The translations under genes and the position numbers were made by a program. Under the pieces are notes generated by a model. That model saw nothing but the letters and a program-made list of their open reading frames with translations. It had not been told where the DNA came from and did no database searches. A DNA stretch of 32,000 nucleotides from a bacterium. GTDB lineage: Bacteria > Zhuqueibacterota > Zhuqueibacteria > Zhuqueibacterales > Geothermadaptataceae. Below are positions 10,256 to 32,000 of this stretch, piece by piece. How positions within the stretch are numbered: position 1 is the stretch's first letter; each line of letters begins with the position of its first letter. The DNA lies in contig JAJRYV010000045.1 in the NCBI GenBank assembly GCA_024275575.1, positions 23,220 to 55,219 of the forward strand, read 5' to 3'.

Positions 10256-11467
10256 ATGAACCGATTTAAAATCGCCATCGTTTATTTACTCTCTTTTACC
10301 TCCAGCGCAATACTCGCGCAAATCCCGAAGCTGATCAGCTATCAGGGCGCGCTCAGCGATTCCACCGGCGCCGCCATTGCTGATGGTGAATATACGATCC
10401 ATTTCCGTATCTACGACGATTCGACAAACGGAATTTTGCTCTGGAAAGAACGGGCGAATATGCACTTGATACGGGGAGTTGTGATTCACAGCTTGGGATC
10501 GGTCGAGCCGTTAACTCTCGCTTTCACGAAACCGTACTGGCTGGGAATGGCGATTGATGGTGAGCCGGAATTGCGGCCACGATTGCAATTTACCGCGGCA
10601 GCTTACAGCCTCGCCAGCGCAGCCAGTGAGAGCGTAAGCGGTGAAACAAACTCTTTCCCATCGCAGGTATTTGTCGGCATCGGTCTTGAAAATGCCGCTG
10701 AAAAAGCGTTAGATGTGAACGGCACCATTCGCTCCCGCAGCGGTGGGTTCCAATTCCCCGACGGCAGCATACAAACCACTGCTGCAGGTTCTGCCGCCAC
10801 AGCGGGCCGCAATTCTCTCGATGCCAGCGATGGCGATCCGGCTCAGGCCCTCTTTCTCAACCACAAAGGTGACGTGGGCATCGGCACGACGCAGCCCCTG
10901 GCCGGATTGCATGTACAAAAAAACGAAATCATTATGAATGGCCACACGCAAATCAGCGATCTGGAAATCGCCTCACCGAAATCTTTCATACGCTGGCATT
11001 TGCGCACAGGTGATGATATAACCGGACTGGCGCCGCACCAGTTGCATTTTCAATATGATGTTTTCGGAAATTATCGCAGTAATTTCAGTCTTCTCTCCAA
11101 TGGCACCACCGTCTTTCACCATAACGTCGGCATTGGCACTGCAATCCCGCGGGAAAAGCTATCGGTCAACGGTACCATCCGCGCCAAAGAAATCATCGTA
11201 ACACAGAAAAACTGGCCGGATTTCGTTTTCCAGCCGGCCTACCAATTGATGTCCCTTGAAGCGCTCGAACAGTTTATTGCTGAAAATGGGCATTTACCGG
11301 ATATTCCTTCAGCCGGGAAAATTGCAAAAGAAGACTTGCGCCTCGGCGAAATGCAGGCCAAATTGCTGCAAAAAATCGAGGAGCTCACCTTGCACCTCAT
11401 CGAAATGCAAAAAGAAAAAAATCCTGATTCTCTCCGTGCTGCTCTTGTTGGTTTTTATTTCTATTAG
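10256..11467 (+). CDS. Secreted surface / tail-fibre-like protein of unknown function
   Basis: GAGGAA Shine-Dalgarno sequence, then signal peptide MNRFKIAIVYLLSFTSSAILAQ. N-terminal IPKLISYQGALSDSTG...YTIHFRIY and C-terminal NWPDFVF...HLPDIPSA...LGEMQAKLLQKIEELTLHLIE resemble, from memory, a module recurring at the ends of FCB-group fibre-like surface proteins. Confidence 0.6.
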   Translation: MNRFKIAIVYLLSFTSSAILAQIPKLISYQGALSDSTGAAIADGEYTIHFRIYDDSTNGILLWKERANMHLIRGVVIHSLGSVEPLTLAFTKPYWLGMAIDGEPELRPRLQFTAAAYSLASAASESVSGETNSFPSQVFVGIGLENAAEKALDVNGTIRSRSGGFQFPDGSIQTTAAGSAATAGRNSLDASDGDPAQALFLNHKGDVGIGTTQPLAGLHVQKNEIIMNGHTQISDLEIASPKSFIRWHLRTGDDITGLAPHQLHFQYDVFGNYRSNFSLLSNGTTVFHHNVGIGTAIPREKLSVNGTIRAKEIIVTQKNWPDFVFQPAYQLMSLEALEQFIAENGHLPDIPSAGKIAKEDLRLGEMQAKLLQKIEELTLHLIEMQKEKNPDSLRAALVGFYFY

Positions 11468-13363
11468 CCCGGCACAAAAAAAGACGCAGCCATATCAGCC
11501 AAAAGCATTCACAATGCCGGCGCCCGGGCAACAATCGTCGCTCAAACGCTTATTACGCTTCCCATTCGCCAAAATAAACCGCAGCGATCTCAAAACCGGC
11601 ATTTTGCACGACCGCGTGCTTTCGTTCAACTTCGTAACCTTACGCAAATTGGATGGTAGGAAAAACAGTCCGGCCATCAATTTTGGAGATTTTAAAAACC
11701 TTTACTTTGAAATGGAGAATGCCGCATTGCCGCCTTTTGCAAGTCGCCCGTTGCCGCTTTTGCTGCAGGAAATAACCGCCCATTTACAAACCCAAAAATC
11801 CATGCCGCTTCTCATCGCCGATTTCGAATATGAGACCGTGGCAGAGGATGCACTGGCCCGCGGTAACCTGCGTGAAAATCAGGCGGGCCAATTCGAAATC
11901 GAGCCGGCAGTGCCAGAATCGCCTTTCGTGCAACACCGACTTTTTATGGCAGTAACGCCGAAAACAAAAATATACCACCGGCAAGTGGAGTTTCAACTTT
12001 CGGAAGATTTTCATTACGGTAATTCAAAAAACCCTTTGCAAAATTTCGAAATCGACTTTGCCGACGGTTTGGGAGTGCGCGCATTAAAAATATCAAACAG
12101 CCTCTGATTTTTCTCGAGGGTTTTGATAGCGATTCGATCACGCCGACAACGACGAGAGGTTTTGCCGAGTTATGGGAAATTATCAATGAGCACAATCTGG
12201 CGAGGCAGCTTCTGCAGCGTGAATTTGACATTCTGGTTGTCAATTTTGCCGACGGCGCTGATTTTGTGCAAAAAAATGCTTTTGCCGTGTTGCAACTTTT
12301 GCAGGAAATCGAAAAGCAGAGCGAATATAGCGGCAACACAGTTATCGTCGGCGCCAGCATGGGTGGATTGGTAGGGCGCTACGCGCTGACCTATGCGGAA
12401 AAATATGGTTTACTGCATCATACGTTTACCTTTATATCTTTCGATACACCACACCGCGGCGCCAATATCCCGTTGGGGGTGCAGGAATGGTTGCATTATT
12501 TTGCCAGCGATAGCCGTCAGGCAAAAGACGCCAACGCACAATTGAACACGCCGGCTGCAAAACCAATGCTGGTTTTGCAGCGTGGTGACAACACAGAGCA
12601 TGTCTATTTTTATAACGAACTGGCAAAACTCGGTTTTCCGCGGCAGACGAGCAATCTCGCCATGGCCAACGGCAGTAGTGGAGGGACGGGTTACGATTTT
12701 CAGCCGGCGGAAAAGATCATCGACTAGCGCTTCCGCCATTTTTGCGTCGATATCGACGGGCATGCCTATGCGGTCAATTCCGGACGCATTTTCTATGGCT
12801 GGGTTGATAAGTTGGGTTTCGACAACCCGAAAGCGACGGAAATTTTCGGGCCAGGCGAAGTCCCTTCGTGGGACAATTCTCCCGGCGGCGGCCGCAACAC
12901 CCTGGCCGACATCGACGATTCCAAACCCCGGGCAAAATGTGGCTTCACGTCAATTAAACTCGGCGATATCAGGGCGCCGTACCGGACGCATAGCTTTGTC
13001 CCGACGATTAGCGCGCTGGATATTTCCACCGATGATCTTTTTTTCCCGGCGATGATGGACAGCACCACCCTGCCGCTCACACCATTTGAGGATATTTTTA
13101 TACCGGAGACTAATGAAGAACATGCACAGATTACAGCGAAAAATGTCGTCTGGATTTTAAAAAAACTGGACCAGATATTGATCTCCGGTAAAACTTATGC
13201 CAGTGGCACAGCAAAAACAATTTTCGCTCCGATTGCAATCGAAATACAAAATTCCACTGTGAAAAGATCAGCAAACCTGACATTGCATGCAGGTGCAGAG
13301 ATTCGCCTCTCAGGTGAATTTCAAGCCATGTCCGGCAGTGAATTTCAAGCAAAAGTTGAATAG
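11436..13363 (+). pseudogene. Secreted alpha/beta-hydrolase (lipase/esterase-like, GxSxG) with a C-terminal coathanger-like repeat, disrupted by one frameshift and one in-frame TAG
   Basis: Fragments: 11421/11436-12107 (signal peptide ILILSVLLLLVFISISPAQ), 12023-12727 (KQPLIFLEGFD...VIVGASMGGLVGRYAL...SFDTPHRGA), and 12728-13363 (RTHSFVPTISALDI...AGAEIRLSGEFQAMSGSEFQAKVE). The frame changes at the A5 run 12086-12090. The TAG at 12725-12727 is in frame with the following 212 codons. Confidence 0.65.
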
Positions 13364-13443
13364 GAATTTTGAAAGTCCTGCGAAAATGATGACCGGAAAA
13401 AATAAATCACTGGTTAATCTTTTCAAAAGACTGTAATCTCTTC

Positions 13444-13514
13444 TCACGCAAAGATGCGAAAACGCTGAGATACGCAAAGAAAGACCGGCTTTTCTTTGCA
13501 TGCTTTGCGTGAAA
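13444..13514. repeat. Repeat family B, palindromic unit
   Basis: tcaCGCAAAGatgcgaaaaCGCTGAGAtACGCAAAGAAAgaccggctTTTCTTTGCatgCTTTGCGtgaaa. The arms are imperfect reverse complements. Confidence 0.7.
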
Positions 13515-13553
13515 CAAATGATTTTAAATCGGTGATCAACTAACCTTTACTAT

Positions 13554-13634
13554 CCTCGCGGAGACGTAGTGGCGCAGAGAAAAACAGCATAAAATATTTA
13601 AAAACAAAACTCTGCGTCTCAGCGACTCGACGAG
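13554..13634. repeat. Repeat family B-related diverged palindromic unit
   Basis: ctcgcggagacgtagtggcGCAGAG - AT-rich 30 nt - CTCTGCgtctcagcgactcgacgag. It shares the tgcgtNNctcagcg(ac) block with 13464-13480 and 25324-25342, in the opposite orientation. Confidence 0.5.
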
Positions 13635-13669
13635 ATGATTTCTCACTCCGCTCTGTTTTTCTTAACAAT

Positions 13670-16192
13670 TTGCCAAATCGCGATTTGAACCCCTGGCTCT
13701 ACGGTTTTTTCCCCGATACGGTCGTTCAAAATTACCGCGGTATACCCTATTTACATGTGCGCGGCAGCCGCGCCGATGAGATCGGCTATCAATTTGAAGG
13801 CATCAATATTCGCAGTGATTATACCGGGCTTTCGGTGATACGTTTTATCCCCGAGATATTGGCTTCGGTCGCGATCAACAAAACGCTCTCAGCCTCACAG
13901 GGCACAGCGAGTGCGTTCGTTTCTCATACATTTCGAATTCCATCACATAAGCTGCTCTTCTCCATCCGTGAAACCAGCGATGCTTTTACCAGCAGTTATA
14001 AAAAACAGGCAAACACCTATTCTTACGGCTATAACAACCTGCTTTTCACCGGTAAAGATCAGTTTTAAATGACAAACTGCAATTCATCGCCGGGCTCGAG
14101 ATGGAGCATTACGACGACCGCTACCACAAATTCTGGCCGGGGCTGACCCTCGGTGGAGCGGAAAAGCTCATCGAACTCAATCCCGACAGGGAGCCGCTGC
14201 CTTTTACAGCGATTTTTGGGGGAAACCAAATTGTACTCCAACCGGGCAATATTCCCGCAGCCAACAACGACCAGTGGCTTTTCAATGGCATGCTCAAATA
14301 TCAAAGCCAACTTGCCTCGGCAAAGCTCATCTACCTCGCTGACAAACAGACATTTCAGGCAAATAATGTCCCCATTCGCAATCTTTACAACCAGGCACGC
14401 ATTCCCGAAATCAGCGAACAGACGCAGGTCATTTCCGCGCAATTCGATTCAAAGCTGCCCTTTGCAGTTGAATCTCATTTACAGTTCGATTATTTCTCGT
14501 CAAGTACAAAAAAACGCGTGATCCGCTGCTTGGCGATGAGATTTTTCAATACAATGATAGCCTGGCCTATGAGAATATCGAAATACCGTTGGACTGGAAC
14601 GACAGGGGGGCTAATTCATACATTTACGGCTTTGAATTTATGTGGGACGGTCCTTTGCTTGCAGATTATGAAAAACGCACGGAAAGCCGGCTGTCGCTTA
14701 ATTTTGATCTACAGAAAAAATGGAAAAGCCATGCATTAAAAGGCGGTTTGCAATTTGAAAACAGCAAGCACCGCTATTATTTTGTTCCGGTAAATATATT
14801 TTAATATCGCGGATTTGAAGCGGAATTAAACAGTCTGCAAGAAAATATGTTGTCTACGAGTTACATTCAAAACTATGGCTACAACCTGTATGGCAATATG
14901 ACGGCTTCAGCCAGGCGCCGCGCAAACCGCAACAGATGCGTTTTTCTCTGCAGGTCGATCAGTCCCTGTTCACTTTCGGAATTAATTATGCATCGATTCG
15001 AACCGGGGCTTATCGTCAGTTTGACCTCACCAATCCGTATTGGGATCAAGGGAGATGCCAATTTTTCGCTGCCGATAGTGCTTTTGACATCGAAAAAAGG
15101 TTTACATATTTTCTACCGCAGCTCAACTGGAAATTCACCCAATCTGAAAAGCTGGTTTATCAACTCTATTTTGGCCGGCACGTTATATTGCCGAAACTCA
15201 GAGATGTCTACATGAGGCGATTGGAACAAAACACTCTCTATTACGGCGGTTTATTTTTCCCCTTTCCAAAAGGACCAAATGCCGATCCCGTCAAAGCGAC
15301 TGATCTTTCGTTTCTGCTCGAGTATGACTATTCTGCGGCGATGAATCTTCAGTTGGCGGTTTTTCAGCGCAGCTCGAATTCTTGGTTGCAGAGCAAATAT
15401 ATTCAGACACAACCGTTATCTTCGGTAACGAATTATGCTACATTGTCAAATGAGGGAGAAAGCCGCGGGCGAGGTTTTGAGTTGAATATAAAACTCCAGA
15501 AGCAGGGTATTCGTTTTGACGGGAATTACACTTTTTCCAGCATAAAAGGAAGCACAAGTTATCCGAATTCAAATGTCTTTGATGCACAACGTGAAAACCC
15601 GCTTTTTAATCGTGACAAGCAGCATAACCTGGAATTCAATCAAAGACATCGAATTAATGCCTGGCTCACTTTACAGGCCACAAAAGACAGGGGGATGTTC
15701 ATCCACAACAGCACGCTGTCCTTGCTCTATCAGTTTAATTCCGGGCATACTTTCTGGCAATTTGACGGCTCCCTTGGTGGCATAACTTCCCCCGAATACG
15801 GCAGCATTTTATCGAATGCGTCGTCACGGGGACGAAAAAACCCTTTTGAGATTACCACACCATGGATTCATAAATTTGATTTAATGCTGCAACGCAGGTT
15901 TGCTTTTGGCCGGTTTCAACCCCGGATATTTTTGATGGGGCAAAATGTTCTCAACCGAAAAAATGTGGAGCAAGTATACTGGCGCACCAGCAATACCGCC
16001 AACGACGGGACTTTTGCTGCTTGGGAAGGTTTGGAAAATATATGGATAAACGAATATGGAACTTCACTGCCTGATTTTTATCAAAAAATCAACATCGAGC
16101 ACCGCCAGCATTATGCTCGTCTTCAGGGCGGCGATCTCTTCGGCCATCCGCGGGAAATTCGTTTTGGCATGGCGCTGGACTTTGATCGATAA
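13670..16192 (+). pseudogene. TonB-dependent-receptor-like outer-membrane barrel gene, 5'-truncated, with 3 frameshifts and 1 in-frame TAA
   Basis: Plug-like LHVRGSRADEIGYQFEGINIRSD, barrel-like ...GESRGRGFELNIKLQ...NVLNRKNVEQVY...PREIRFGMALDF. There is no signal peptide or N-terminal domain. Frame changes occur at about 14060-14068 (T4), about 14507-14513 (A7) and about 14893-14900. An in-frame TAA lies at 14802-14804. Confidence 0.6.
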
Positions 16193-16436
16193 AGCTGTAA
16201 TGATTCCACCACTTGACGATCGATAAATTTCCGGGTCTGCTTTATTGATAAATTTTTCCCGGGAACCACAGAGATGAGCAAATTCAGCACATTTTTTTCA
16301 TGATGGGAAAAGTTTATATTCATTTTAAAAAATTTAGCGGGCTCAATTTAAGCCACTGATTCACCCAGATTGTACACAGATATAAAATCAGTGTTTAATC
16401 CATGCATATCAGTAGCTTAAATAATTTCCAATGGAA

Positions 16437-19328
16437 TCAGTTGACTGTCCCGCGCTTGACGATTTCTACCGCTACCCGGCGGTTTTGCTTGCGGCCTTCA
16501 TCTGTGGCGTTTGTCGCAACCGGAAATTTCGAGCTGTATCCGACAGCTTGCATCCGCTCTTCCGCCACACCTTTTTCAGCAAAATAGGCCAGCACAAAAC
16601 GGGCGCGTTTCAGCGATAAATCGCGATTATGGCCGTCGCTCCCCAGGCTGTCTGTATGGCCGGAAATCAAAATAATGCGGGCTGAATCGGCATAGAGTTT
16701 CGGCAGGTAACGGTCGAGGAAGCTGTCTAGTGCACTCTCGGTTTTGCGGGAAAAGCTCGACTGGTTCAGGTCGAATTTAACAATCAAATCCGTCGCCACA
16801 TCGATGACAAATTCAGCGCGGTTATCGGCTGCATTTTTGTCTTTTTCCAGCACAATTTCACTGCGGTTGATGATATCCAGAATAAAATTATCCCCCAGCG
16901 AAACACGCCGGTTGGCCTGTTTGCCGGCTTTTGTTGCATTGCTGGCAATCGGCCGCATTTCACCATAGCCGCGGGCGATAACACTGTTACTGTCTACCCA
17001 TTTGTTCAATTTCCCGGATGCGTCCCCGAGTTGCAGCAAATATTTCAGCACGCTGTTCGCCCGACGCTGCGAAAGCGCCTGATTGCGCGGTTCCGTATCG
17101 TCGGAATCGGTGTGCCCCTGAATTTCCACCGCCTTGTAAGGATTGTATGCAATGCGGGCAGCAAAGATTTTCAAAATGCGTTTATGCTCTTTTTGCAAAT
17201 TCATTTTGGAGTTCGGCCGTAAAAAATGTTTGGCAACATCGAATTCCGTATTGGCGAACGGATCCGTAAGATTAACCGTGTACTCAATTGTTTTTATTTC
17301 CCCTGCCGGCAGCTCAGCGATGCGCCAGTTGAGGATGTCCCCATTGACTTTTCCGGAGAAATTGTCAAAACTTTTCCATTTGACCAACGGCGAAAGCGTA
17401 TCAGCCACCTGGATATTTTTTGCCGGGGCAAAACCCTTGTTGGCAATCGTCAAGCGATATTTCAAATCGCCGCCGAATTTGCTGGGTTTCAATCCGCTAA
17501 GCTCGATTTTTTCGATTGAAACATTGGTAAAACAGCTTGAGTCTGCCCGCATTTCGTTATTGTCCTCATCGTTCTCCAGAATCAAATCGCTGGCATCCAC
17601 GCGGGCGATCAGGTGATAATCACCCCGGGTTGCATCGAGCAGAATTCGCCTTTGGAAGCGTTCCCCTACCCCGAGAAAAGCCAGGGTGTCCTGTAAGATC
17701 AGATTACCGCCAAGATTATTTTCAACAGGTGATTTGCTGGAGAGCACCTCCATTCCTCGCGACACCATCAAATCGACAATAGTTATAATCACCCGCTCGG
17801 CCGGCGCCTGGCCGTTATTGATGATCACCAATTCCGCCGCTGGTTCTTCACCGCACGCCACAGTGAGTTTTTCGATTTCGAGATCAGGCAAGCGAATGAT
17901 AAATTTGGAGATATGCCCGCCGTTCACATCGGCGATGCGATAGTGATGGTCTGAATCATAAGCGATAGTGGTCCAGAAATAGGTACCAGCACGCAACGCT
18001 TTAATTTTTGCATATCGATCTGAAACCGCCAGGCTGTGCAGCGGCCGGTTCCCACCGGTTGAGAGCAGTTTTTGATCGATAAATTGACGCTTTTTGCTAT
18101 ACTCTTTACCATACTCTACCCGGATATTTTTCAAAATCCGGATGAGTTTGGTGCTGTCATCATCGACGAGAAGCCAATATTTTACATTGTCAAAAATATC
18201 GCGATCGAGGGATTGCTGCCAATTCAATTCAACGGAATTATGGTAAATTTCCGCGGCAAATTGCGGATATTGCAGCCGGAAAGGTTCGGGGCCGACGAAC
18301 AGGTGGGATGCGGAAACATGCAACGTGTTGGCGAAATGGCCGATATTTTGTTTGTCCGAGCTTTCGAAACCACTCATCTCAAACTGGCCGGAAAAATTCC
18401 TGCCCAACAGTTTGTTTTTCAAAACACCGAATTTATCATCGAGACCGAGACTGATACCGAAGGAATAATTATTGAGCAAACCGCGATTTTTCAAGTTGAG
18501 CACGTATCCCACATAAACGGAAAAGACGCGCCCGAGATTGAGTTCGTAAGACAGACTGGCGTGATCATCTTCATCTTGAATGGCACGATAACCGAGGCCA
18601 AAACGCATCTGTGTGCCGCTGTGACTGCCGAGATAGAGACTCGAACCCAGGCGTACCGTCCGCGGTAGCGGTGTTTCCTCACGCACATATTTAATTGGCC
18701 GGCCGAGGTTCTGCACCGAAGCGCCAGCGGCAAATCGCCATGACTTGAGAAATGGAATTTTACTGTGCAGCGCAGCCCGCAGCAGTGATTTATAAATCAC
18801 GCCAAAATCGAAAGCCAGGGTGCTGGCCTGAAAACGATCGAGTTCACTGCGAAAATATTTGGCGTGCACACCGAGAGCGAAGCGATCGGCAAAACCCGGA
18901 AGCGTCAGACCATAACCGGCGCTTGCAATGAAATCACCCGCCTGCACCACGGGCATGCGATCTTTCGTGCTGTCGAATTCCGGCAGAAAAATATTGGAAA
19001 AACTGAGCACCAGTTTCTGCTGCCGCAGGTTGCCAATGCGAAATCGCTTGCCGGCAAAAATCGAAGTGGCGGTAAAATCGCTGAGCCAGTCGCTGTAAGC
19101 CGCTGACCAGCCGCTTTCCCGCCCCATGCCGATGAGGCCGGGGTTGCCCCAAAAACCGTAGAGATTATCGATATCGCTGACCAGCGCCGGACCGCTCACC
19201 TGCTGTTTGGCGCCCGGCAGAAATTTCAGAAAAGCGCCGCCGGTGCGAATCTGTGCCGGTAATTCCTGACAAACGAAAAAGTAGGCAACGACGAGAAATG
19301 AAATTATTAAAATTGATTTTTGTCCCAT
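16437..19328 (-). CDS. Large outer-membrane protein: PorV/FadL-like N-terminal barrel + CARDB/DUF11-like Ig modules + two C-terminal OmpA-type peptidoglycan-binding domains
   Basis: Signal peptide, then GGAFLKFLPGAKQQVSGPALVSDIDNLYGFWGNPGLIG (PorV-family opening pattern). CARDB-like ...LILENDEDNNE. DUF11-like LKYRLTIANKGFAPAKNIQVADTL. OmpA motifs occur twice: IQGHTDSDD...ALSQRRANSV...NRRVSL and ISGHTDSLGSDGHNRDLSLKRARFV...NRRVAVEIV. Confidence 0.8.
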   Translation of the reverse strand: MGQKSILIISFLVVAYFFVCQELPAQIRTGGAFLKFLPGAKQQVSGPALVSDIDNLYGFWGNPGLIGMGRESGWSAAYSDWLSDFTATSIFAGKRFRIGNLRQQKLVLSFSNIFLPEFDSTKDRMPVVQAGDFIASAGYGLTLPGFADRFALGVHAKYFRSELDRFQASTLAFDFGVIYKSLLRAALHSKIPFLKSWRFAAGASVQNLGRPIKYVREETPLPRTVRLGSSLYLGSHSGTQMRFGLGYRAIQDEDDHASLSYELNLGRVFSVYVGYVLNLKNRGLLNNYSFGISLGLDDKFGVLKNKLLGRNFSGQFEMSGFESSDKQNIGHFANTLHVSASHLFVGPEPFRLQYPQFAAEIYHNSVELNWQQSLDRDIFDNVKYWLLVDDDSTKLIRILKNIRVEYGKEYSKKRQFIDQKLLSTGGNRPLHSLAVSDRYAKIKALRAGTYFWTTIAYDSDHHYRIADVNGGHISKFIIRLPDLEIEKLTVACGEEPAAELVIINNGQAPAERVIITIVDLMVSRGMEVLSSKSPVENNLGGNLILQDTLAFLGVGERFQRRILLDATRGDYHLIARVDASDLILENDEDNNEMRADSSCFTNVSIEKIELSGLKPSKFGGDLKYRLTIANKGFAPAKNIQVADTLSPLVKWKSFDNFSGKVNGDILNWRIAELPAGEIKTIEYTVNLTDPFANTEFDVAKHFLRPNSKMNLQKEHKRILKIFAARIAYNPYKAVEIQGHTDSDDTEPRNQALSQRRANSVLKYLLQLGDASGKLNKWVDSNSVIARGYGEMRPIASNATKAGKQANRRVSLGDNFILDIINRSEIVLEKDKNAADNRAEFVIDVATDLIVKFDLNQSSFSRKTESALDSFLDRYLPKLYADSARIILISGHTDSLGSDGHNRDLSLKRARFVLAYFAEKGVAEERMQAVGYSSKFPVATNATDEGRKQNRRVAVEIVKRGTVN

Positions 19329-22180
19329 TATTGCACCAGTAAAAACTTAAGTTTACAATGTTGATCGGTCGTGTGTACGACCAGAATATAAGCGCCGCTG
19401 CCCATTTTTTTGCCGGAATTGACAAGACCGTTCCAATAGGTTTTGTGCAGCACTCCGGCGGAATAAACCCCCTCCTTCACCGTCGTGATATATGTTCCAA
19501 GAAGATCGTAAATTTTGATGGAAACCCGGTCGGTGCGGCAGGTTTCGAAATTGATTTCGAGATCGCTATCAACAGCCGGGGCGTAGACATTTTTATCGAG
19601 GAAACAATCAAGGCCGCAAAAAACCTGCAGCGAGTGTTCCGCCTTATTATTGCCCGGCTTTACATCGTCTGGATACTCGACGGTTGCCCGGTTTTGCAAT
19701 TCTGCCGGCAATTGCGGGATATCGGATAAAATAGTTGCCGTATATCGCAAAAATATTTTTTCACCGGGCTGTAATATGCGGTCGAAATACCAGCGGCCGC
19801 TATTTGTTGTTGAAAAATCCGGCCGCAGGCTGAAATCAGTGAGTTGCAGATAAATGGAAGCGCTGTCGGCGAGGGTGAAATTTTGAGCGCTGCCGGGCCC
19901 GTTGTTGGTGATTTCCAGTTCAAATTCGATTTCATCGCCGATTTTCCCACCCGCCTGCATCGCCCGCTTGAGAATGCTCAGGTCGGCCGGTAAATTTATT
20001 CTATCCGGCCGCAGGATTACCAACGCCGAATCCTGATTATTGCCCGAATTGCCGTCGCCCGGACTGACGATCTCAACAAAATTTTGCAGGGAAATAAAAT
20101 TTGCACCTGCAGCCGTGGCGCTCCCCTGAATAGTCAAATCGAGCTGTGCTGCGGGAGACAGAAAAAATCCCGGCCAGCGAATGGTATCGCTGTTTACTGT
20201 CAATCCCGGCTGCGAAGAAGTGATGTCCTCCGCGGTAAAACCCTGTGGCCATTTTTCCAGCAGATAAAAACTGAAAACCGTATCGGGCCCGAGATTGCTG
20301 ATTTCAATTTGATAATTGATAAACTGCCCGTAGTCAACAGTATCTTTTTGCGCCTGCTTGGTGACGCGCAAATCGCTGGAACGGGGAGTTGTACAGTCAC
20401 CGATTTTCACAGCGACTTGAGCAGAATTATTTGCCGCGAGGCTATCGTTTTTTGCGAATAAACTGGCGCGGGCCAGCATTTCCCCGGAAAAAACAGCAGG
20501 GACAAACGCGTCGATTTCAAACACTGCACTATCGCCGGCAGTGAGAAAATCCTGAGATGTCTGCCACAGAACAAAGCCCTGAGCCGAATCGATTTGCTGC
20601 CAGTAATCCGGCAGATTGAACAACAATGTTGCGGGCAAACCGGCTTGCAAAATAATGCTGCCGCTTGCGGTCGGCCCCGGATTTCGCACCGTATAGCGAA
20701 AACGGATGCTATCAGCAAGACAAACCGAATCCGCCGATGCCTGCAGATCGAGCGCCAGATCGGTGGTCTGATAAACATGCAGGGTCGAATCACGATTGTT
20801 GGCCGGATTGCTATCATATGGCGCGGCAACGCTGACTTTATTTTCGAGGAAAAGAGTTTGATCGGCGACGAGGCCTTCCAGTAGTTGCGCCTGATAACTA
20901 AAGATCAGCGAATCACCAGCTGATATTTTGCGATCGACCAGCCAGAAAAAACCTGAATCGTCGGTGCTGTCCGGTTCAGTTGTAAAATTGAAGGCGTACA
21001 GAAATTTATCCAGCGTATCCCGCACTGTAAATGCCGAGGCCTCATCGGGCCCAAGATTGCGCAGCACGAGGCGATAATCCAAAATCCCCGCTGCTGCGGG
21101 GAAACGCCAGACGCCGCTTTTTTCAATTGCCAAATCATAAACCGGCGCACTGCAGCGCGGATCAACGAGAATGGATTGCCGCACGAACTGGCTATCGAGT
21201 TGCGTATCACTGTTAGTAAAAATCTGGCAAATTAATTCCACAGTCGTGATACTGTCAAGTTGATCAAAAGTGATTTCAAGGGCAAGGTTTTGTTGAAAAT
21301 TCAATAAATCCGTCAGGCCCTGTGCCCCGGGTATCCAGCGGAAACTCAGCAGTGAGTCGAGACGAGAACTCTGCCATTCCGCGCTGGTATTTTTAATGGT
21401 CATACCGGGTGGTTCGACCATTTTTAAAACCAGACTGTCGATTTCCGATAGATCGAACAATTGCATGTCCGCTTCATCAACATCAAAAACGACATCGAGC
21501 TGACCGCGTTGAATGGCACAGTCCATGGTGAATTGCGGGTTGCATTGCAGGCGCAAATCATTTGTACAGAATGGTGAAAGCAAACGAACAAAAAAGATTT
21601 CAACACTTTCAGGTTCACTCCTGCCGCCGATTGAATTGCCGCTATTGGCGCCGGCGGAACCGGTGTCTGATAAATCGTAATAATTGACAAAATCAGGATG
21701 GGCTTCGGCGATTATTTTATAATGATTGATAATGATGGTATTGCACCCTTTTTCAAAATAAAACAAACCGGCGTCGCGGTTAACCAGCCCGTCGAACGCG
21801 GCGGTAGAATCATCAACCACGATTTTATAAGCCGCGTCAGCCGTGGTGATGTTGGGGTCTTGCGGGAAACGCAGTTGGCTGTTGCGAACATGCACATAAA
21901 AACTTTCATTTTTCTGTTTATTACCGCTATTGTAGTGGGCGAGTGTTTGGATATGAAAAAAACCTTCTTCGGGAAAATCATCGATATCGAAAGAAACACT
22001 GCGCGTCCAGTTGACCCAATGGGTGGTGTCGGCGAAAACACGCAATTCGTTATGCATGAAATCAAAAGAATAAGTTGAGCAACTATCCTGTGCTATCACC
22101 GGCATGGTGAACAGGAAAAAAAAGACGGGAAATAGCAGACGCCACAAAACCTGTTTGAAGTTTTGTTTGATTTTTTTCAT
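19328..22180 (-). CDS. DUF11-repeat cell-surface protein with a C-terminal FlgD-Ig / T9SS-type sorting domain
   Basis: Signal peptide LLFPVFFFLFTMPVIAQ. At least 4 repeats of the type DLxxxKxxx...xYxxxxxNxGPxxAxxxxxxD (for example DLSILKRAMQAGGKIGDEIEFELEITNNGPGSAQNFTLAD). C-terminus: VSIKIYDLLGTYITTV...YWNGLVNSGKKMGSGAYILVVHT...KFLLVQ. The stop overlaps the start of the downstream gene by 1 nt. Confidence 0.75.
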   Translation of the reverse strand: MKKIKQNFKQVLWRLLFPVFFFLFTMPVIAQDSCSTYSFDFMHNELRVFADTTHWVNWTRSVSFDIDDFPEEGFFHIQTLAHYNSGNKQKNESFYVHVRNSQLRFPQDPNITTADAAYKIVVDDSTAAFDGLVNRDAGLFYFEKGCNTIIINHYKIIAEAHPDFVNYYDLSDTGSAGANSGNSIGGRSEPESVEIFFVRLLSPFCTNDLRLQCNPQFTMDCAIQRGQLDVVFDVDEADMQLFDLSEIDSLVLKMVEPPGMTIKNTSAEWQSSRLDSLLSFRWIPGAQGLTDLLNFQQNLALEITFDQLDSITTVELICQIFTNSDTQLDSQFVRQSILVDPRCSAPVYDLAIEKSGVWRFPAAAGILDYRLVLRNLGPDEASAFTVRDTLDKFLYAFNFTTEPDSTDDSGFFWLVDRKISAGDSLIFSYQAQLLEGLVADQTLFLENKVSVAAPYDSNPANNRDSTLHVYQTTDLALDLQASADSVCLADSIRFRYTVRNPGPTASGSIILQAGLPATLLFNLPDYWQQIDSAQGFVLWQTSQDFLTAGDSAVFEIDAFVPAVFSGEMLARASLFAKNDSLAANNSAQVAVKIGDCTTPRSSDLRVTKQAQKDTVDYGQFINYQIEISNLGPDTVFSFYLLEKWPQGFTAEDITSSQPGLTVNSDTIRWPGFFLSPAAQLDLTIQGSATAAGANFISLQNFVEIVSPGDGNSGNNQDSALVILRPDRINLPADLSILKRAMQAGGKIGDEIEFELEITNNGPGSAQNFTLADSASIYLQLTDFSLRPDFSTTNSGRWYFDRILQPGEKIFLRYTATILSDIPQLPAELQNRATVEYPDDVKPGNNKAEHSLQVFCGLDCFLDKNVYAPAVDSDLEINFETCRTDRVSIKIYDLLGTYITTVKEGVYSAGVLHKTYWNGLVNSGKKMGSGAYILVVHTTDQHCKLKFLLVQ

Positions 22181-26791: not shown

Positions 26792-28582
26792 ATGAAAATG
26801 ACATTTGACGAATTTCTGAAAAAGGTAATCATTGCCGGAATTCTTTTGGGATTGCCGATTTGCAGCCTCGGCGCCCAGTCCCGGATGAACGATAATTCTC
26901 TCGAAAATATCGAGAACACGATGGAAGCCAACCTGTCGTGGAATCTTGAAACGGCTTTACTCAATTATTTTCCAGAGACCAAGTTCGTTGTTAAAGCCAA
27001 TGTGCAACTTGAAAAAGTCCGGCAGGTAACTGCCCTGCCGCCATTGCCGGATGTTTTGTTAAAAAGAGAAGTCACTTCCTTGCCTGGTTTGCCTTTTATT
27101 CCGGGTCAGGAACGGCAAAAGGCGAAGCAAAACGACAAGTTCCGTTCTGTAGCTGAAAAATCGAATGTAAAAGTAAAACGGCTCACCGTCAATGTGCTCG
27201 TCGATAATAGTTTCACTGAAGGCGACTGGGCTTTCATCCGGCGCCTGGTTTCCCTTTCCGCCGATATGGACCCGCGTCGCGGCGACCGGGTTTCGGTGGA
27301 AGCTTTTGACTTTCCTGTGAAGTCCAATTATTTTAACTCGCCGCCCCCAAAAATCAGCGCCGACAGCAACGCCCAAAATGCTTTTGCCCAATCCCTTTTT
27401 CCGGATGAACAAAAAGCGGGTTTTGACTGGCGGCCGTTTATTTTTGCTGCTGTGCTGGCCGGTATTTTTCTCATCATTCTTTTCTGGGGCATGAATTCGA
27501 TTTTGAAAAAATTGAACCAGGAGCCGGCCATTGAAAAAGAAGCGCCGCTGCCGGCCCGGCAGGAAAAACAGTCAGCGGAAGCGGACCAGGAAAAGGATGC
27601 GCAATTCGCCATGAAATCTTCGGTGGTCGATGCCATTGTCGGCACGCCGGCGGCGGCAGCCGACGTCATTAAAGACTGGGTGAAAAATGATGCCGGCAGC
27701 GGTGTTCGTGATGCGGCGGTTCTCTTCCGCGCCACCTCAAAAAATCTCAATAAATTTCTCGCCGAATCCCTCGGCGCACAAATTTCTGCAGACGTGCAGG
27801 AGCAGATCGATTTGTTGCCGCAGGATGAGATCGACCGGGCCGGAGCTGAAGTGGTCAAAAAGTTTGATGAAAATCTGCGTAACACGGCGCTTTCGGCGAT
27901 CCGCAATGAGGAGGAAAGTGACGCGCTGGCCTTTTTACATCAATTGACAGACGACCAATTATTGCACCTGATCAAACCCCTGAAAGATGGTGTTTTGGCC
28001 ATCGTATTGGCACAATTGCAGCCCGAACGCGCTTTCCGCATCATTAAATCGCTGGACCCGCGCAAGCAGCCTGCAGCGCTCGCAGCCATGGGTAATGTGG
28101 AAAAAGTGCCGGCCGATGTCTACCAGCATATTGCCAAACAACTGCTGACGCGGGCAAAAGACGTTGAGAAAATGCGCTTCGTGCGCGCCGACGGCATCGA
28201 TGCGCTGGTTAATATCCTCGATTTTATGGATGATTTTGATCAGGAGCAAATTCTCGAATATATCGATACGCAAGATTTGAATTTATCCCAGCGCATCCGG
28301 GCGAAGTATATGACATTCAACCAATTGGTGGAATTGCCGGCTGAAAAAATGCGCGAACTGGCCTTTACCGTTGATCGCGACCTGTTAGCCAAATCCCTCA
28401 TTCATGTCGACGATGTGACGGTGAACCGCATCATCGAAGCACTGCCCGACAAGCTGGCGGAAATGGTACAGGCCAGCCTCGAAGCCGGCAGCGAAGTCAG
28501 TGAAGAAGAAGTCACACGTGCGCGCCGGCAGTTGATGCGTACCGTGCGTCAATCCGGAATTGCCAAAGAAACGGTAAAATAA
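26792..28582 (+). CDS. Two-TM inner-membrane protein: FliF/YscJ-like periplasmic ring-building motif fused to FliG-like middle + C-terminal (torque) domains
   Basis: TM1 is aa 11-28. Periplasmic part: LETALLNYFPETKFVVKANVQLE ... VKRLTVNVLVDNSF...IRRLVSLSADMDPRRGDRVSVEAFDF (FliF/YscJ RBM pattern). TM2 is aa 214-234. Cytoplasmic part: GVLAIVLAQLQPERAFRIIKSLDPRKQPAALAAMGNVEKV (FliG_M-like), ADGIDALVNILDFMD...ILEYI...SQRIRAKYMTFNQLVELPAEKMRELAFTVDRDLLAKSL...ALPDKLAEMVQASLEAGSEVSEEEVTRARRQLMRTV. This last stretch is co-linear by eye with E. coli FliG ...MFLFENLVDVDDRSIQRLLQEVDSESLLIALK...NMSQRAADILRDDLANRGPVRLSQVENEQKAILLIV. Confidence 0.7.
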   Translation: MKMTFDEFLKKVIIAGILLGLPICSLGAQSRMNDNSLENIENTMEANLSWNLETALLNYFPETKFVVKANVQLEKVRQVTALPPLPDVLLKREVTSLPGLPFIPGQERQKAKQNDKFRSVAEKSNVKVKRLTVNVLVDNSFTEGDWAFIRRLVSLSADMDPRRGDRVSVEAFDFPVKSNYFNSPPPKISADSNAQNAFAQSLFPDEQKAGFDWRPFIFAAVLAGIFLIILFWGMNSILKKLNQEPAIEKEAPLPARQEKQSAEADQEKDAQFAMKSSVVDAIVGTPAAAADVIKDWVKNDAGSGVRDAAVLFRATSKNLNKFLAESLGAQISADVQEQIDLLPQDEIDRAGAEVVKKFDENLRNTALSAIRNEEESDALAFLHQLTDDQLLHLIKPLKDGVLAIVLAQLQPERAFRIIKSLDPRKQPAALAAMGNVEKVPADVYQHIAKQLLTRAKDVEKMRFVRADGIDALVNILDFMDDFDQEQILEYIDTQDLNLSQRIRAKYMTFNQLVELPAEKMRELAFTVDRDLLAKSLIHVDDVTVNRIIEALPDKLAEMVQASLEAGSEVSEEEVTRARRQLMRTVRQSGIAKETVK

Positions 28583-28593: not shown

Positions 28594-29760
28594 ATGACGC
28601 AAAAAACTAAAAAATATATTCACCATATTCTCATTTTGGCTGTTTTTGCCATTTCGCCGCTTGCCGCGCAAATGGAGAATCAGGCAGGACGAAAACCGGA
28701 GAATAAACCGGTTGAGAAAAGCATGCTTTTCAACCTGCTCGAGGATATTTTTGTGCAGGTTGCGCAAGCGGCACCGGAGGTGGGAACCGATCTTGAGCGC
28801 ATCGCCGTCTATCATTTGAAAGTGGATGAGCGCTATATTCCACCGGCATTACGCACACATATCGAAGCGAGAATTGCCGAAATTTTCCGTGATATCGAAA
28901 TGCCGAAACTGGTCTCGCTGCCGGAGCTGAACACGATGAAAATCGTTTCCACCGACAGCAGTTTTCGCATCGTCAATACACTGCCTTCACCGCACGAATT
29001 GTGGAAAATCGGCAAACGCCTGCGCATCGACGCTTTTATGGATGGCGCCATAACCTATTTGCCCGGCAAAGCGCTGTTGCTCGATTTGAAACTGAATAAA
29101 GTGGGTAGCAGCGAAGTCGTCTGGTCGCGTTCATTTGCCTCCTATATCGACGATCCCGACCTGCCGTCGACGAATCCATTCATGAAATCTCTCGTTGCCG
29201 GATTGGAAGTCTATCCCATCGAATGGGATGTGGCCGATTCCGATACTCTGATTCACAGGAACGCCAGCAATCAACTGAAACAGCAAACGGTGTATTTCGG
29301 TGTGCATCAATATTTGTGGGAAAAAAGCCGTTTGCGTTATGAATTTAGCATCGGGCTGGCATTCCTCACCGACGGCCTGAAGCTGAACAATACTGCTTTT
29401 ACAAAATCCGCGTTTTACGGCAGTTCTTCGACCACGGGTGGTTTCTCCATCCCGGTTTCCTACAATGTCCGTACGATGATTTATTCAACACTGGTAGAAA
29501 ACAGTAAAAGCAATCGCTCCGATTGGCTCTCGGCGTATTTTTCATTGACGCGGCATTTCGCCATGAAAATGCCGGATTTCACCAGTATTACGGTCGGTCT
29601 GCGCACGGATTTTACACAACGTTTTTCCTTTTCTGCAGGTTTGAGCATGGTGCTCGGCAAAGAATTCGAATCACAGATGGTGAAATCCAGCGGTGAGAAA
29701 ATCAATTTAAAAATCAGCGGTATGCAATATGAGTTGATGCTGTTGCAGCTTTCATTTTAA
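28594..29760 (+). CDS. Exported protein, probably outer-membrane associated: CsgG/FlgO/LpoB-like N-terminal pattern + C-terminal beta-rich region ending in Phe
   Basis: Signal peptide ILILAVFAISPLAAQ. Then RIAVYHLKVDERYI...IGKRLRIDAFMDGAITYLPGKALLLDLKLNKVGSSEVVWSRSF (periplasmic scaffold pattern). The C-terminal half alternates hydrophobic residues and ends YELMLLQLSF. Function unknown. Confidence 0.5.
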   Translation: MTQKTKKYIHHILILAVFAISPLAAQMENQAGRKPENKPVEKSMLFNLLEDIFVQVAQAAPEVGTDLERIAVYHLKVDERYIPPALRTHIEARIAEIFRDIEMPKLVSLPELNTMKIVSTDSSFRIVNTLPSPHELWKIGKRLRIDAFMDGAITYLPGKALLLDLKLNKVGSSEVVWSRSFASYIDDPDLPSTNPFMKSLVAGLEVYPIEWDVADSDTLIHRNASNQLKQQTVYFGVHQYLWEKSRLRYEFSIGLAFLTDGLKLNNTAFTKSAFYGSSSTTGGFSIPVSYNVRTMIYSTLVENSKSNRSDWLSAYFSLTRHFAMKMPDFTSITVGLRTDFTQRFSFSAGLSMVLGKEFESQMVKSSGEKINLKISGMQYELMLLQLSF

Positions 29761-29790: not shown

Positions 29791-30507
29791 ATGTTTTTAA
29801 AACAGAAATATACAGTCATTGCTCTTGTTTTTTCTGCCATCCTTTTTTTGCATTGTGGCGGCAGCAATAACACTGCAGTGAAAGATTTGCCCGCTAAGGC
29901 CGGCACAGAAAAAGCATTAACACCTGAGAAAATCGCTGCGCTCGACCAAAAAGCTGATTCGACAAAAACCGCTGAAGAGAAGAAACGGCAGAAGACGATT
30001 GTCACCGAGCTCGATGGCGCCAAACTGAAGAAAACCCAGAGCTATCCTTACATCAGCATCAAGTTCTATCAGAAGGATACGGATGTGGAAATGGTGCTCG
30101 ATCCACTTTCAACAAACATCGATCTCGACCTCAAGCGGCGACCAGATGGCACCCTTGAAGTGCGAAAAGGTGATGAGGTTTTAACTCAGATGGGGCCGAA
30201 AGACAGCACGAAAACATCATCACGCAGGACGGCACCATTTGATCCCAGTGAGGATTTAACCGACGATATCATTCGGGATATCAATCTGGCGCAGCAACTT
30301 TTTTATCAAAATGAATATGATGACGCGCTGAAGATTCTCAATTCCAGCCTGGAGAAGAAACAAACGGCTTCAGCTTATGCCCTCGGCGGTTCCATCTATT
30401 TCGTCAATGGCGAGATGAACGAAGCGGTGCGGGCATGGGAGAACGCCCTGAAAATCAATCCTGATCTCGATGAATTAAAGGGGCTTGTCGCGCGTTACAA
30501 GAAATAA
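29791..30507 (+). CDS. Exported (possibly lipid-anchored) TPR-repeat protein
   Basis: The hydrophobic leader ends at ...ILFLHC(22)GGS; the lipobox is non-canonical. The C-terminal AQQLFYQNEYDDALKILNSSLE...AYALGGSIYFVNGEMNEAVRAWENALKINPD reads as TPR repeats. Confidence 0.6.
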   Translation: MFLKQKYTVIALVFSAILFLHCGGSNNTAVKDLPAKAGTEKALTPEKIAALDQKADSTKTAEEKKRQKTIVTELDGAKLKKTQSYPYISIKFYQKDTDVEMVLDPLSTNIDLDLKRRPDGTLEVRKGDEVLTQMGPKDSTKTSSRRTAPFDPSEDLTDDIIRDINLAQQLFYQNEYDDALKILNSSLEKKQTASAYALGGSIYFVNGEMNEAVRAWENALKINPDLDELKGLVARYKK

Positions 30508-30534: not shown

Positions 30535-31356
30535 GTGTTTACATTATTAGGCGTCCTGCTCGGCGTCGCTCTGATCGCCTGGGGAATTATTTCAGGCCAG
30601 GCCACACCGGATGTGTTTCTCAACTGGCAAGGTGTGGCCATCGTTTTCGGCGGCACCATTGCTTCAACGTTCATTTCACACCCTTTCCGTGAGGTCTTTC
30701 GCGGATTTATGTCCTATTTTGTTATCTTTCGTTCCGGCCGGGTTGATTATGTTAAAGTCATCGACAAAATGGTGACGGCCATCCGCATCGGTCAACGCGA
30801 CGGCATTCCCGCCATGCAAAAGCAGATTAAGGCGCTGAAAGGTCTGTGGATTTTTAAAGATGGCGTTCAGATGCTGGCCAATGGTTATACCCGCGAAGAA
30901 GCAAAAGCAACGCTGGAAGATCAGGTTCGCTGGAAGGTAACCCGGGAGCTGAAGCAGCGCGATCTTTTCAACTCGATGTCGCAAGCGGCACCGGCCTTCG
31001 GCATGATCGGAACGCTCATCGGTCTGATCAATATGCTGCTGACACTGCAATCAAACCCTTCCGATGTTGGCTCCGGTTTGGCCATTGCTTTGATCACGAC
31101 ATTTTATGGATTGATCATGGCAAACATGGTTTTTGCACCCATCGGCGCTAAAATTGAAGATCGCGCCGAGACCAACCTGCTTTTCGAGACCATTCAGATG
31201 GAAGCTGTATTGCTGCTTTATGACAAGAAAAACTATATCTTCGCGCGTGACAAGCTCGCAGCCTATCTCAACGCCGGATCACGCAAAAAACTTATCAAAG
31301 TCGCCGGAAAAGGCTCTTTGCAGAAGAAACAGGGATTCATTAAAAAGGCGGCATAA
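30535..31356 (+). CDS. motA: MotA/PomA-family proton(ion)-channel stator subunit
   Basis: Four-TM topology with a roughly 100-aa cytoplasmic loop between TM2 and TM3. AAPAFGMIGTLIGLINML...GLAIALITTFYGLIMANMVFAPIGAKIE is the MotA_ExbB channel signature. GTG start after GAAAGG. Confidence 0.85.
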   Translation: MFTLLGVLLGVALIAWGIISGQATPDVFLNWQGVAIVFGGTIASTFISHPFREVFRGFMSYFVIFRSGRVDYVKVIDKMVTAIRIGQRDGIPAMQKQIKALKGLWIFKDGVQMLANGYTREEAKATLEDQVRWKVTRELKQRDLFNSMSQAAPAFGMIGTLIGLINMLLTLQSNPSDVGSGLAIALITTFYGLIMANMVFAPIGAKIEDRAETNLLFETIQMEAVLLLYDKKNYIFARDKLAAYLNAGSRKKLIKVAGKGSLQKKQGFIKKAA

Positions 31357-31358: not shown

Positions 31359-32000
31359 ATGCAACTCGATCTTCCACATCAGAATATGATAAAATCAAAC
31401 AAAGGGGAGAGCCAAACCTGGATGATGTCCTACAGTGATTTGGTGACGCTGCTGCTGGCGTTTTTTGTCCTGTTTTTCGCCATATCGCAGGTTGATCAAG
31501 CCAAATTTGAAGCTATCATGGAATACTTCAGTGAGAGTGATAAACTACCGTTGAGCGAACTGGAAAAAGTCGTCGAGCAATTGGTGGCTGAACACAATCT
31601 GCAGGAAAGTGTTGAAGTTGAACTCACAGGAGAGGGACTGCTGTTGACCTTTCAGGACAAGATTCTTTTTGATTCGGGTAAAGCCAATCTGAAGGAAGGC
31701 GCCTACCCAATTTTGGGGGGCATTGGCGATATTTTAAAAAGCGAAAAAGTGGCGGATCGCCATATCAAAGTAGAGGGACACACCGATACGGTTCCGCTGA
31801 GTAAAAAATCGGATTATCCGTCAAACTGGGAACTGTCTGCCGCACGGGCAACACATGTCATCCGCTATCTCATCGCCAAAGAAGTTGATCCGCATCGCTT
31901 TGTTGCCATTGGTTATGCCGATACGCGGCTGCGCATCGAAGAATCCGGGGCAAAGCGGGGGTTGCAGGCAAATCGCAGGGTGAGTTTGATTATCAGATAA
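31359..32000 (+). CDS. motB: MotB/PomB-family stator subunit with an OmpA-like peptidoglycan-binding domain
   Basis: WMMSYSDLVTLLLAFFVLFFAIS (TM with the conserved channel Asp), then FDSGKANL...VEGHTDTVP...SNWELSAARATHV...GYADTR...NRRVSLII. There is a 2-nt gap after motA. The stop codon is the last triplet of the window. Confidence 0.85.
   Translation: MQLDLPHQNMIKSNKGESQTWMMSYSDLVTLLLAFFVLFFAISQVDQAKFEAIMEYFSESDKLPLSELEKVVEQLVAEHNLQESVEVELTGEGLLLTFQDKILFDSGKANLKEGAYPILGGIGDILKSEKVADRHIKVEGHTDTVPLSKKSDYPSNWELSAARATHVIRYLIAKEVDPHRFVAIGYADTRLRIEESGAKRGLQANRRVSLIIR

Follow-up and report, generated by a model that had tools for sequence, protein, structure and literature searches.

A gene for a natural FliF-FliG fusion protein stands at the head of a set of five genes in a 32,000-nucleotide (nt) stretch of DNA from a bacterium of the family Geothermadaptataceae (contig JAJRYV010000045.1 of GenBank assembly GCA_024275575.1, positions 23,220 to 55,219; this whole stretch is the window, and coordinates below are those of the window). 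The gene, at 26792..28582 on the forward (+) strand, is an open reading frame (ORF) with an ATG start and encodes 596 amino acids (aa), which read as the third ring-building motif (RBM3), second transmembrane (TM) helix and probable C-terminal tail of FliF joined to a whole FliG, with its N, M, and C domains. It is followed by genes for a 388-aa orphan protein, a tetratricopeptide repeat (TPR) lipoprotein, MotA, and MotB, in that order. We consider it moderately probable that these genes encode a flagellar-type rotor/stator core that works without a flagellum and has its output in the periplasm or at the outer membrane.

A family of natural FliF-FliG fusions

That the protein joins FliF-like and FliG-like parts had been proposed in a preliminary description made from the letters of the window, and the proposal was borne out by Pfam, by alignments to solved structures, and by the relatives of the protein. 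Pfam placed YscJ_FliF_C (PF08345) at aa 115-174 of the fusion (33.0 bits vs. a gathering score of 23.8), FliG_M (PF14841) at aa 389-459 (29.4 bits; cut-off 25), and FliG_C (PF01706), the strongest match, at aa 490-587 (58.5 bits; cut-off 23.3). An exact look-up of the window's own protein returned no record, and a word-index search found 21 full-length homologues of 559-608 aa with 40-76% identity. These close homologues are from metagenome-assembled genomes (MAGs) of Calditrichota and KSB1, most have the same Pfam combination, and their alignment contains ~90 invariant columns. A profile search of 1.84 billion cluster representatives (E < 1e-30) revealed at least 166 clusters of the fusion family at 50% identity. 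Nearly all representatives are 560-780 aa long and have a common TM layout, consisting of a weak N-terminal hydrophobic segment, a strong TM helix at aa ~200-330 (present in essentially all of them), and ~370 cytoplasmic residues; the architecture was found in ~150 clusters, which puts the features of the fusion well outside what chance would give.

The named members of the family come from KSB1, one Elusimicrobia MAG, and one gammaproteobacterial MAG, and the further members are metagenome proteins, some of them from marine Tara samples. The fused architecture occurs in independent NCBI, JGI, ENA, Logan, and Tara assemblies, and the reading frame was intact in every complete copy seen. The family is known from uncultured bacteria only. 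Its members carry hypothetical annotations or are wrongly labeled as FliG, the database names of the relatives being "hypothetical protein," "FliG C-terminal domain-containing protein," or "FliG."

The fliF and fliG genes of Vibrio overlap, and a one-nucleotide deletion yields a laboratory fusion of the two (PMC10941966). The gene in the window reads as the expected product of such a fliF-fliG read-through combined with loss of the N-terminal half of FliF.

The FliF part: RBM3, a main TM helix, and a possible tail

The N-terminal hydrophobic segment (aa ~8-28; 26813..26875, +) had been described as a first TM helix at aa 11-28. A hydrophobic segment is indeed present there (Kyte-Doolittle score of 1.96 vs. 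2.65 for the main TM helix), but its hydrophobic core is ~12 residues long and is followed by LGA|Q, and the segment ends in A-Q in most homologues. By these features it looks more like a cleavable signal peptide than a first TM helix; if it is one, the mature protein would have the single-pass topology of the injectisome protein SctJ. The main TM helix (aa ~214-241; 27431..27514, +), which was located by a hydrophobicity scan and is a helix at aa 214-241 in an AlphaFold 2 (AF2) monomer model of the fusion (mean predicted local distance difference test score [pLDDT] of 70.6), is equivalent to FliF TM2. Both this helix and the acidic linker that follows it (aa 242-262) had been noted previously.

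The periplasmic domain (aa ~37-175; 26900..27316, +) resembles the RBM3/S-ring domain of FliF in a family profile search, in Foldseek comparisons, and in its Pfam YscJ_FliF_C match. The periplasmic-region profile, built from 21 diverse members, matched the FliF S-ring chain 9yh6_Oj (E = 4.7e-5) over 138 of 147 positions. In the full-length FliF chain 12dr_A, it matched residues 243-291 and 420-454, which are the RBM3 halves that flank the beta-collar. Foldseek matched the AF2 model to MS-ring and S-ring chains with a probability of 1.00, E ~1e-2, and a target-normalized TM-score of ~0.55. We conclude from these comparisons that the single RBM of the fusion is specifically RBM3 of FliF. We found no Pfam match in the fusion to the family covering RBM1/RBM2 (PF01514, YscJ_FliF); just ~35 residues precede RBM3, and the periplasmic part, at ~180 aa, has no room for RBM1 or RBM2. 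In FliF, RBM1 and RBM2 form the inner M-ring, which houses the export gate.

The earlier expectation of a minimal periplasmic ring domain with one RBM fold was thus upheld. The accompanying view that the collar is missing needs a correction, in that RBM3 keeps an insert of ~45 aa at the collar position (aa ~76-122; 27017..27157, +), compared with ~128 aa between the RBM3 halves of 12dr_A. This insert, which lies between the two halves of RBM3 and has a pLDDT of <50 in the monomer model, carries a nearly invariant L-P-G-L-P sequence, the most conserved periplasmic motif of the broad family, with conservation of ≥90%.

A motif resembling the C-terminal tail of FliF (aa ~276-300, with G284, P286, and W296; 27617..27691, +) was recognized through a weak sub-hit (5 bits), in which G-x-P...W aligned with residues 573-594 of the Vibrio FliF-FliG chain 8z4d (VRALVANEPELAAQVVKNWMND), the extreme C-terminus of Vibrio FliF. 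The sub-hit directly precedes the FliG_N match in the same chain and is co-linear with it. Residue statistics, here and below, were taken from 153 members of the wider family; the Trp is found in 113 of them and the Pro in 120. A standalone 38-aa profile of the motif gave chance-level matches only, and homology to the FliG-binding tail of FliF is suggestive only. W296 would be the counterpart of FliF W575, which we take to be important for FliG binding.

The FliG part is complete

In the preliminary description, FliG_N was thought to have been replaced by a covalent membrane anchor. This view was not supported, as a FliG_N-like domain together with the helix that connects N and M (aa ~303-373; 27698..27910, +) was recognized with a family profile, AF2, and Foldseek. 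The profile, which covers aa 255-385 and was built from 27 diverse family members, was searched against solved structures and matched residues 619-683 of 8z4d (E = 1.8e-5), residues 7-63 of Thermotoga FliG_N (5tdy_B; E = 1.7e-4), and residues 5-72 of Salmonella FliG (E = 0.16). Residues 619-683 of 8z4d correspond to approximately FliG 25-89 when the tag is taken as 16 residues (945 = 16 + 578 + 351, with FliG assumed to be 351 aa long); the Vibrio fusion is without the last two FliF residues (PMC10941966). The AF2 helices are well predicted through aa 261-373, with a pLDDT of 83-88 for the FliG_N-like ones, and Foldseek aligned 316 columns of the fusion with full-length Aquifex FliG (3hjl; E = 3.6e-7). 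The Pfam FliG_N model scored 23.2 bits on the fusion, below its cut-off of 25, with the match placed on the M region. We rejected the Pfam FliG_N matches in relatives as evidence for this domain, since these are cross-matches to the FliG_M region. From the profile and structural alignments, we conclude that FliG_N is retained in the fusion.

The co-linearity of the rest of the cytoplasmic part with FliG_M and FliG_C, and the YMTF sequence, which had been pointed out by eye, were confirmed by Pfam and by a phmmer search of the PDB, in which aa 345-587 aligned co-linearly with residues 66-318 of Aquifex FliG (E = 1.5e-12) and Thermotoga FliG matched at E = 6.6e-9. The FliG equivalog TIGR00207 matched aa 337-587 on its positions 69-319 of 338, with a score of 65 bits vs. 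a cut-off of 226.7. Within the FliG_M-like domain (aa ~381-465; 27932..28186, +), delimited by Pfam and by a HMMER alignment to Thermotoga FliG, HLIKPLKDG stands in place of the FliM-binding EHPQR site, with P-L-K-D-G (aa 396-400) as the aligned residues. The pattern HLxKPLKxG is invariant in the close homologues. Of the EHPQR residues, the Glu alone recurs often, in 116 of the 153 members of the wider family, and this fusion has Leu there.

The FliG_C-like domain (aa ~468-596; 28193..28579, +) contains the MFxF-like YMTF (aa 506-509), which HMMER aligned with the MFxF hinge motif, and a torque helix at aa 552-566. HMMER also reproduced an earlier by-eye alignment to E. coli FliG, in which K554 corresponds to R281, A561/S562 to D288/D289, and S570 to R297. 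The R281 position is basic in 145 of the 153 family members and an acidic residue (Glu or Asp) occupies the D289 position in 65, while no conservation was seen across the 153 at the R297 position.

A conserved five-gene module

The five genes are separated by 11, 30, 27, and 2 nt, and because of this close spacing (2-30 nt) they are consistent with a single operon. Rfam, promoter, and terminator scans of the operon revealed nothing notable. Among 18 loci from GTDB genomes of Calditrichota and KSB1, all 15 that were long enough hold the five genes in the same order, and the genes flanking the module are unrelated from locus to locus. In ten distant loci, which include those of the Elusimicrobia and gammaproteobacterial MAGs, three module gene orders were seen: MotA adjoins the fusion in eight, with MotB next wherever the contig reaches; a short TPR or lipoprotein-sized gene adjoins it in all ten; and an unannotated protein of ~360-420 aa adjoins it in nine.

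Flagellar export, rod, hook, and FliM/FliN families were found neither in the neighborhoods (±8-10 kb) of 25 loci nor elsewhere in the window, and fliE, fliH, fliI, fliM, and fliN were not seen as neighbors in the 25 loci long enough to show a neighborhood. A separate fliF was likewise absent from these surroundings.

Some loci differ in their gene content. At one distant locus (L027, 11609-14801), the place of MotAB after the fusion and TPR genes is taken by a gene for an aldo-keto reductase and then two for DDE transposases, and the module there may be disrupted or rearranged. The gammaproteobacteria-like variants of the module have an extra Sel1-repeat protein of ~470-490 aa alongside (L020, 5191-6663; L022, 12340-13746); the two proteins are 30% identical and recall the Sel1-repeat stator scaffold MotX. 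In L020, the module borders on a BBP2_2/Wza/Wzc/Wzy exopolysaccharide export locus (12614-19415), a context that is otherwise not conserved. Where the order is unknown protein, TPR, fusion, MotA, MotB (the third gene order), an unannotated gene for a protein of ~450-470 aa comes after MotB (L025, 11807-13222; L028, 11581-12927). The L025 copy, the one that was compared, has no BLAST similarity to the Sel1 proteins.

The stator genes and the rotor-stator interface

The 273-aa MotA (30535..31356, +) is of the flagellar-stator type, with a Pfam MotA_ExbB (PF01618) score of 80.3 bits. Its closest solved structure is Clostridium sporogenes MotA (6ysf; E = 2.9e-35), followed by PomA (E = 5e-26), and its similarity to TolQ is marginal (E = 0.0033). 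The best NCBIfam models scored below their cut-offs (MotP, 139.9 vs. 394; PomA, 132.2 vs. 341). In the 213-aa MotB (31359..32000, +), whose stop codon coincides with the final three letters of the window, we found the plug (PF13677; 65.5 bits), an OmpA-like peptidoglycan-binding domain (PF00691; 62.5 bits), and the channel Asp27, which lies in SYSDL. Its best NCBIfam matches are MotS and MotD, with MotS at 167.2 vs. a cut-off of 264. Since MotB keeps its plug, Asp27, and OmpA domain and MotA keeps the two channel prolines, in PAFG and APIG, the stator looks functional.

In a rough MotA tree with three flagellar references, the MotAs of the module group together. Subgroups of the module MotAs score no better in bits against one another than against Clostridium MotA, however, so the grouping does not settle MotA monophyly.

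A check of the charges in the MotA loop, suggested along with the by-eye torque-helix alignment, revealed changes on this side of the interface as well, the equivalents of R90 and E98 being Q87 and Q95. Only one of 10 rotor-stator pairs has Arg at the R90 position, where Gln predominates in the family; at the E98 position, five of the six distant loci examined have an acidic residue, and this clade does not. We rejected a simple charge covariation between MotA R90/E98 and FliG D288/D289/R281, as the 10 pairs displayed no clean compensatory pattern.

The two envelope proteins

The 388-aa orphan protein (28594..29760, +) begins with a predicted signal peptide and an alpha/beta domain, and its C-terminal half, which ends in ...LLQLSF, is rich in beta structure. 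It follows the fusion gene in all complete Calditrichota/KSB1 loci, and the neighbor is recognizably homologous in five distant loci, plus one further locus (L024). No Pfam (outer-membrane protein families included), NCBIfam, or PDB match was obtained, profile searches included, and one orthologue gave a faint match to FlgO (E = 0.13) that serves as a lead only. An AF2 model made from eight sequences had a pLDDT of 39.7, which is too poor for a fold search; its secondary structure consists of the N-terminal alpha/beta domain followed by ~10 long strands. Amphipathic beta periodicity exceeded the 95th percentile in 17% of sequence windows (5% expected), with enrichment in the C-terminal half, and the C-terminus (...LLQLSF or ...LQYxF) is conserved, with an aromatic end residue. 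With low confidence, the protein is probably an outer-membrane beta-barrel with a periplasmic domain.

The 238-aa TPR lipoprotein (29791..30507, +) has a lipobox Cys, a small beta domain, and a C-terminal pair of TPRs (TPR_1/TPR_2). The Cys after the signal segment is present in 14 of 15 orthologues. The beta domain is conserved, the TPR part spans ~65 aa, and the C-terminal region is orthologous in the distant loci. TPR proteins encoded beside flagellar genes are widespread periplasmic stator scaffolds (PMC11870540), and by analogy this lipoprotein may be one too.

Comparison with known systems

With the flagellar FliF and FliG core, the fusion shares RBM3/S-ring, TM2, the N, M, and C domains of FliG, and the MFxF-like hinge, and its torque helix would face a MotA-type stator. 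It differs from that core in being without RBM1 and RBM2, in its much shorter collar insert and probably single TM helix, and in the replacement of EHPQR and the loss of D288/D289/R297. FliG is a separate soluble protein in the flagellum and part of a membrane-protein fusion here, and its constant partners in the module are the TPR lipoprotein and the orphan 388-aa protein, predicted to lie in the outer membrane. Engineered Salmonella and Vibrio FliF-FliG fusions are likewise single chains, and these laboratory proteins form rings and, in Salmonella, rotate (PMC10941966). The injectisome protein SctJ (PrgK/YscJ) resembles the fusion in its predicted export signal, periplasmic RBM(s), and one C-terminal TM helix, and PrgK (2y9j_Y) was among the weak Foldseek matches (E = 0.24). 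In contrast to SctJ, the fusion is not lipidated, its RBM matches FliF RBM3 specifically, and its cytoplasmic part contains a complete FliG, a feature found in no SctJ.

The stator resembles MotPS, PomAB, and Clostridium MotAB in its four-TM MotA with a flagellar-type cytoplasmic domain and in the plug, channel Asp, and OmpA-like domain of MotB. It differs from these flagellar stators in that both subunits fall below all NCBIfam equivalog cut-offs, in the R90/E98 equivalents, which vary across the family, and in the setting of its genes, which lie with that of a fused rotor and not within a flagellar or chemotaxis cluster. As with the stator scaffolds PflA/PflB, MotX, and FlgO/FlgP/FlgT, a TPR lipoprotein is encoded with the stator, and a Sel1-repeat protein occurs in some loci; there is, however, no significant sequence homology to these scaffolds, and the TPR part is short. 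ExbBD-TonB, TolQR-TolA/Pal, GldLM, AglRQS, and ZorAB are also ion-driven motors of the MotA/MotB family that do not turn a flagellar filament, and like these 5:2 motors the module would probably energize the outer envelope. They deliver their output through B-subunit extensions or partners (TonB, TolA, GldM) and have no FliG/FliF ring, whereas the stator of the module is flagellar-type, with a plug and a torque-interface domain, and has a FliG ring as its predicted partner.

A possible mechanism

In the mechanism that we propose, the RBM3 domains would oligomerize into an S-ring-like ring above the inner membrane, which would put a ring of FliG domains on the cytoplasmic face. MotA5B2-type units, anchored to peptidoglycan through the OmpA-like domain of MotB, would conduct ions past Asp27 and push the FliG_C torque helix, so that the ring would turn. 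Since the module is without RBM1/RBM2, export gate, rod, hook, filament, and FliM/FliN switch, the torque would be delivered to periplasmic or outer-membrane partners rather than to an external filament. The likeliest coupling point would be the invariant LPGLP loop, engaging the lipoprotein and/or the 388-aa protein, although it is just as possible that the TPR lipoprotein is a scaffold and not the load. A covalent rotor of this kind should be workable, as engineered FliF-FliG fusions form rings efficiently and support motility in Salmonella (PMC10941966). As to the role, our guess would be mechanical work on the envelope, for example surface movement, secretion, or envelope maintenance.

Several points weigh against this proposal. 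The ring and its rotation are inferred from homology, and the outer-membrane location of the 388-aa protein is predicted from sequence patterns, with a model of low pLDDT. Two distant loci have no adjacent MotAB. As both partners in this clade depart from the canonical rotor-stator charge pairs, the interface may work differently or not at all. Finally, a full flagellar cluster is present in Caldithrix abyssi, which belongs to the phylum and has been cultured (PMC5317091), and the module may have an accessory role in a flagellum.

Alternative explanations

The fusion could instead be a lineage-specific rotor of a normal flagellum encoded elsewhere in the genome, which we consider quite unlikely. 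Each of its domains derives from flagellar proteins, engineered fusions are functional in Salmonella (PMC10941966), the phylum has the flagellated member just named (PMC5317091), and some sources label the relatives FliG; against this, RBM1 and RBM2 are absent from a periplasmic part of just ~180 aa, the FliM-binding site is replaced, the score for the FliG equivalog TIGR00207 is far below its cut-off, the usual fli neighbors are missing from the 25 loci, and the constant partners are two non-flagellar envelope proteins. More plausible, but still unlikely, is a static or regulatory platform, in which the ring would recruit MotAB units and open them as a peptidoglycan-tethered ion channel or envelope tether, similar to Tol-Pal, or would act as a sensor of envelope load that does not rotate continuously. 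Loss of the canonical torque charge pairs in this clade would fit such a platform, and the set of partners (the OmpA-like domain, the TPR lipoprotein, and the predicted outer-membrane protein, whose periplasmic domain is of the alpha/beta type) loosely recalls Tol-Pal/CpoB. Yet the R281 position remains basic in nearly all family members and the MotA E98 position acidic in most of the distant loci examined, the similarity to TolQ is marginal, and the FliG_C fold, the MFxF-like hinge, the flagellar-type cytoplasmic domain of MotA, and the MotB plug are all kept. A conserved torque domain is hard to explain without torque transfer, which disfavors a static role.

It is highly improbable that the module is a decaying, functionless relic of a lost flagellum, as might be suggested by flagellar parts without a flagellum and by the loss of some canonical functional residues. 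The reading frames are intact, ~90 positions are invariant across homologues that are only 40-76% identical, the five-gene module has been kept across several phyla in three gene orders, and new invariant motifs specific to the family have appeared, namely LPGLP and, in the close homologues, HLxKPLKxG. We give almost no credence to the two objections raised in the preliminary description itself, that generic helical repeats of the MgtE_N/ARM type make up the cytoplasmic part or that the ORF is an assembly chimera of two genes. MgtE_N does score above its gathering score (28.4 bits vs. 25.9) at aa 352-433, overlapping the FliG_M region, and the FliG_N Pfam matches of relatives also sit on the M region. 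FliG nevertheless outscores it, with FliG_C as the strongest match and MgtE at a Foldseek E of 0.46, and the repeat reading is ruled out by the top sequence and structure matches, which are to FliG and are co-linear over N, M, and C. A chimera is ruled out by the recurrence of the same architecture in the 21 homologues, in at least 166 clusters, and in independently made assemblies.

Other genes in the window

Two abutting genes for large surface-type proteins (16437-19328 and 19328-22180, both on the reverse [-] strand) are not conserved beside the module elsewhere. The 963-aa protein has DUF11/CARDB and two OmpA domains and a weak PorV-like N-terminal region, and the 950-aa protein contains four DUF11 repeats and ends in a FlgD_ig-like region that is similar to a type IX secretion sorting domain. 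In a 490-aa protein (1409-2881, -), an SLT lytic transglycosylase domain is paired, unusually, with an FHA domain that matches the YscD cytoplasmic-domain family as well. The adjacent genes at 3160-4815 (-) and 4876-5961 (-) encode, one, ATP-grasp_5 and GNAT domains and, the other, CoA_binding and Succ_CoA_lig domains, and the pair corresponds to a Pat-like protein acetyltransferase or an ADP-forming acyl-CoA synthetase whose parts are divided between two genes. Overlapping genes at 6904-8289 (-) and 8283-9824 (-) encode a sigma-54-dependent response regulator and PAS histidine kinase pair for which we saw no link to the module. ORFs of 403, 212, and 418 aa (10256-11467, 14101-14739, and 14936-16192, all +) had no Pfam match at E ≤ 1e-5.

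Implications

Full-text literature searches returned engineered FliF-FliG fusions only and no description of the fusion family. A 2025 survey of MotAB evolution that includes gene-neighborhood analysis names FliG in its introduction only and makes no mention of the module. To our knowledge, FliG and FliF are regarded as flagellum-specific, and we know of no partner other than a FliG ring on which MotAB-type stators exert torque.

The module is also a data point on how the flagellar motor was assembled in evolution. It is very unlikely, in our view, that it represents a surviving pre-flagellar rotor-stator core rather than a stripped-down flagellum. If it did, a single-chain ring of RBM3, TM helix, and FliG, driven by MotAB and working on the envelope, would have come first; the flagellum would have arisen by joining a type III export apparatus, with the gene splitting into fliF and fliG; and the co-folded FliF tail and FliG_N of modern flagella would be the scar of that gene fission.

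Returning to the reading that we prefer, the rotor and stator parts of the flagellum have probably been repackaged in this family as a flagellum-free module and an undescribed ion-driven rotary machine. With a one-protein rotor, neither switch nor export gate, and re-wired interface charges, it would offer a minimal, compact system for rotor-stator coupling. If this reading is correct, the module would add a new ion-driven rotary machine to the flagellum, Ton/Tol, GldLM, and Zorya, and would be the first case of a flagellar-type rotor put to another use.

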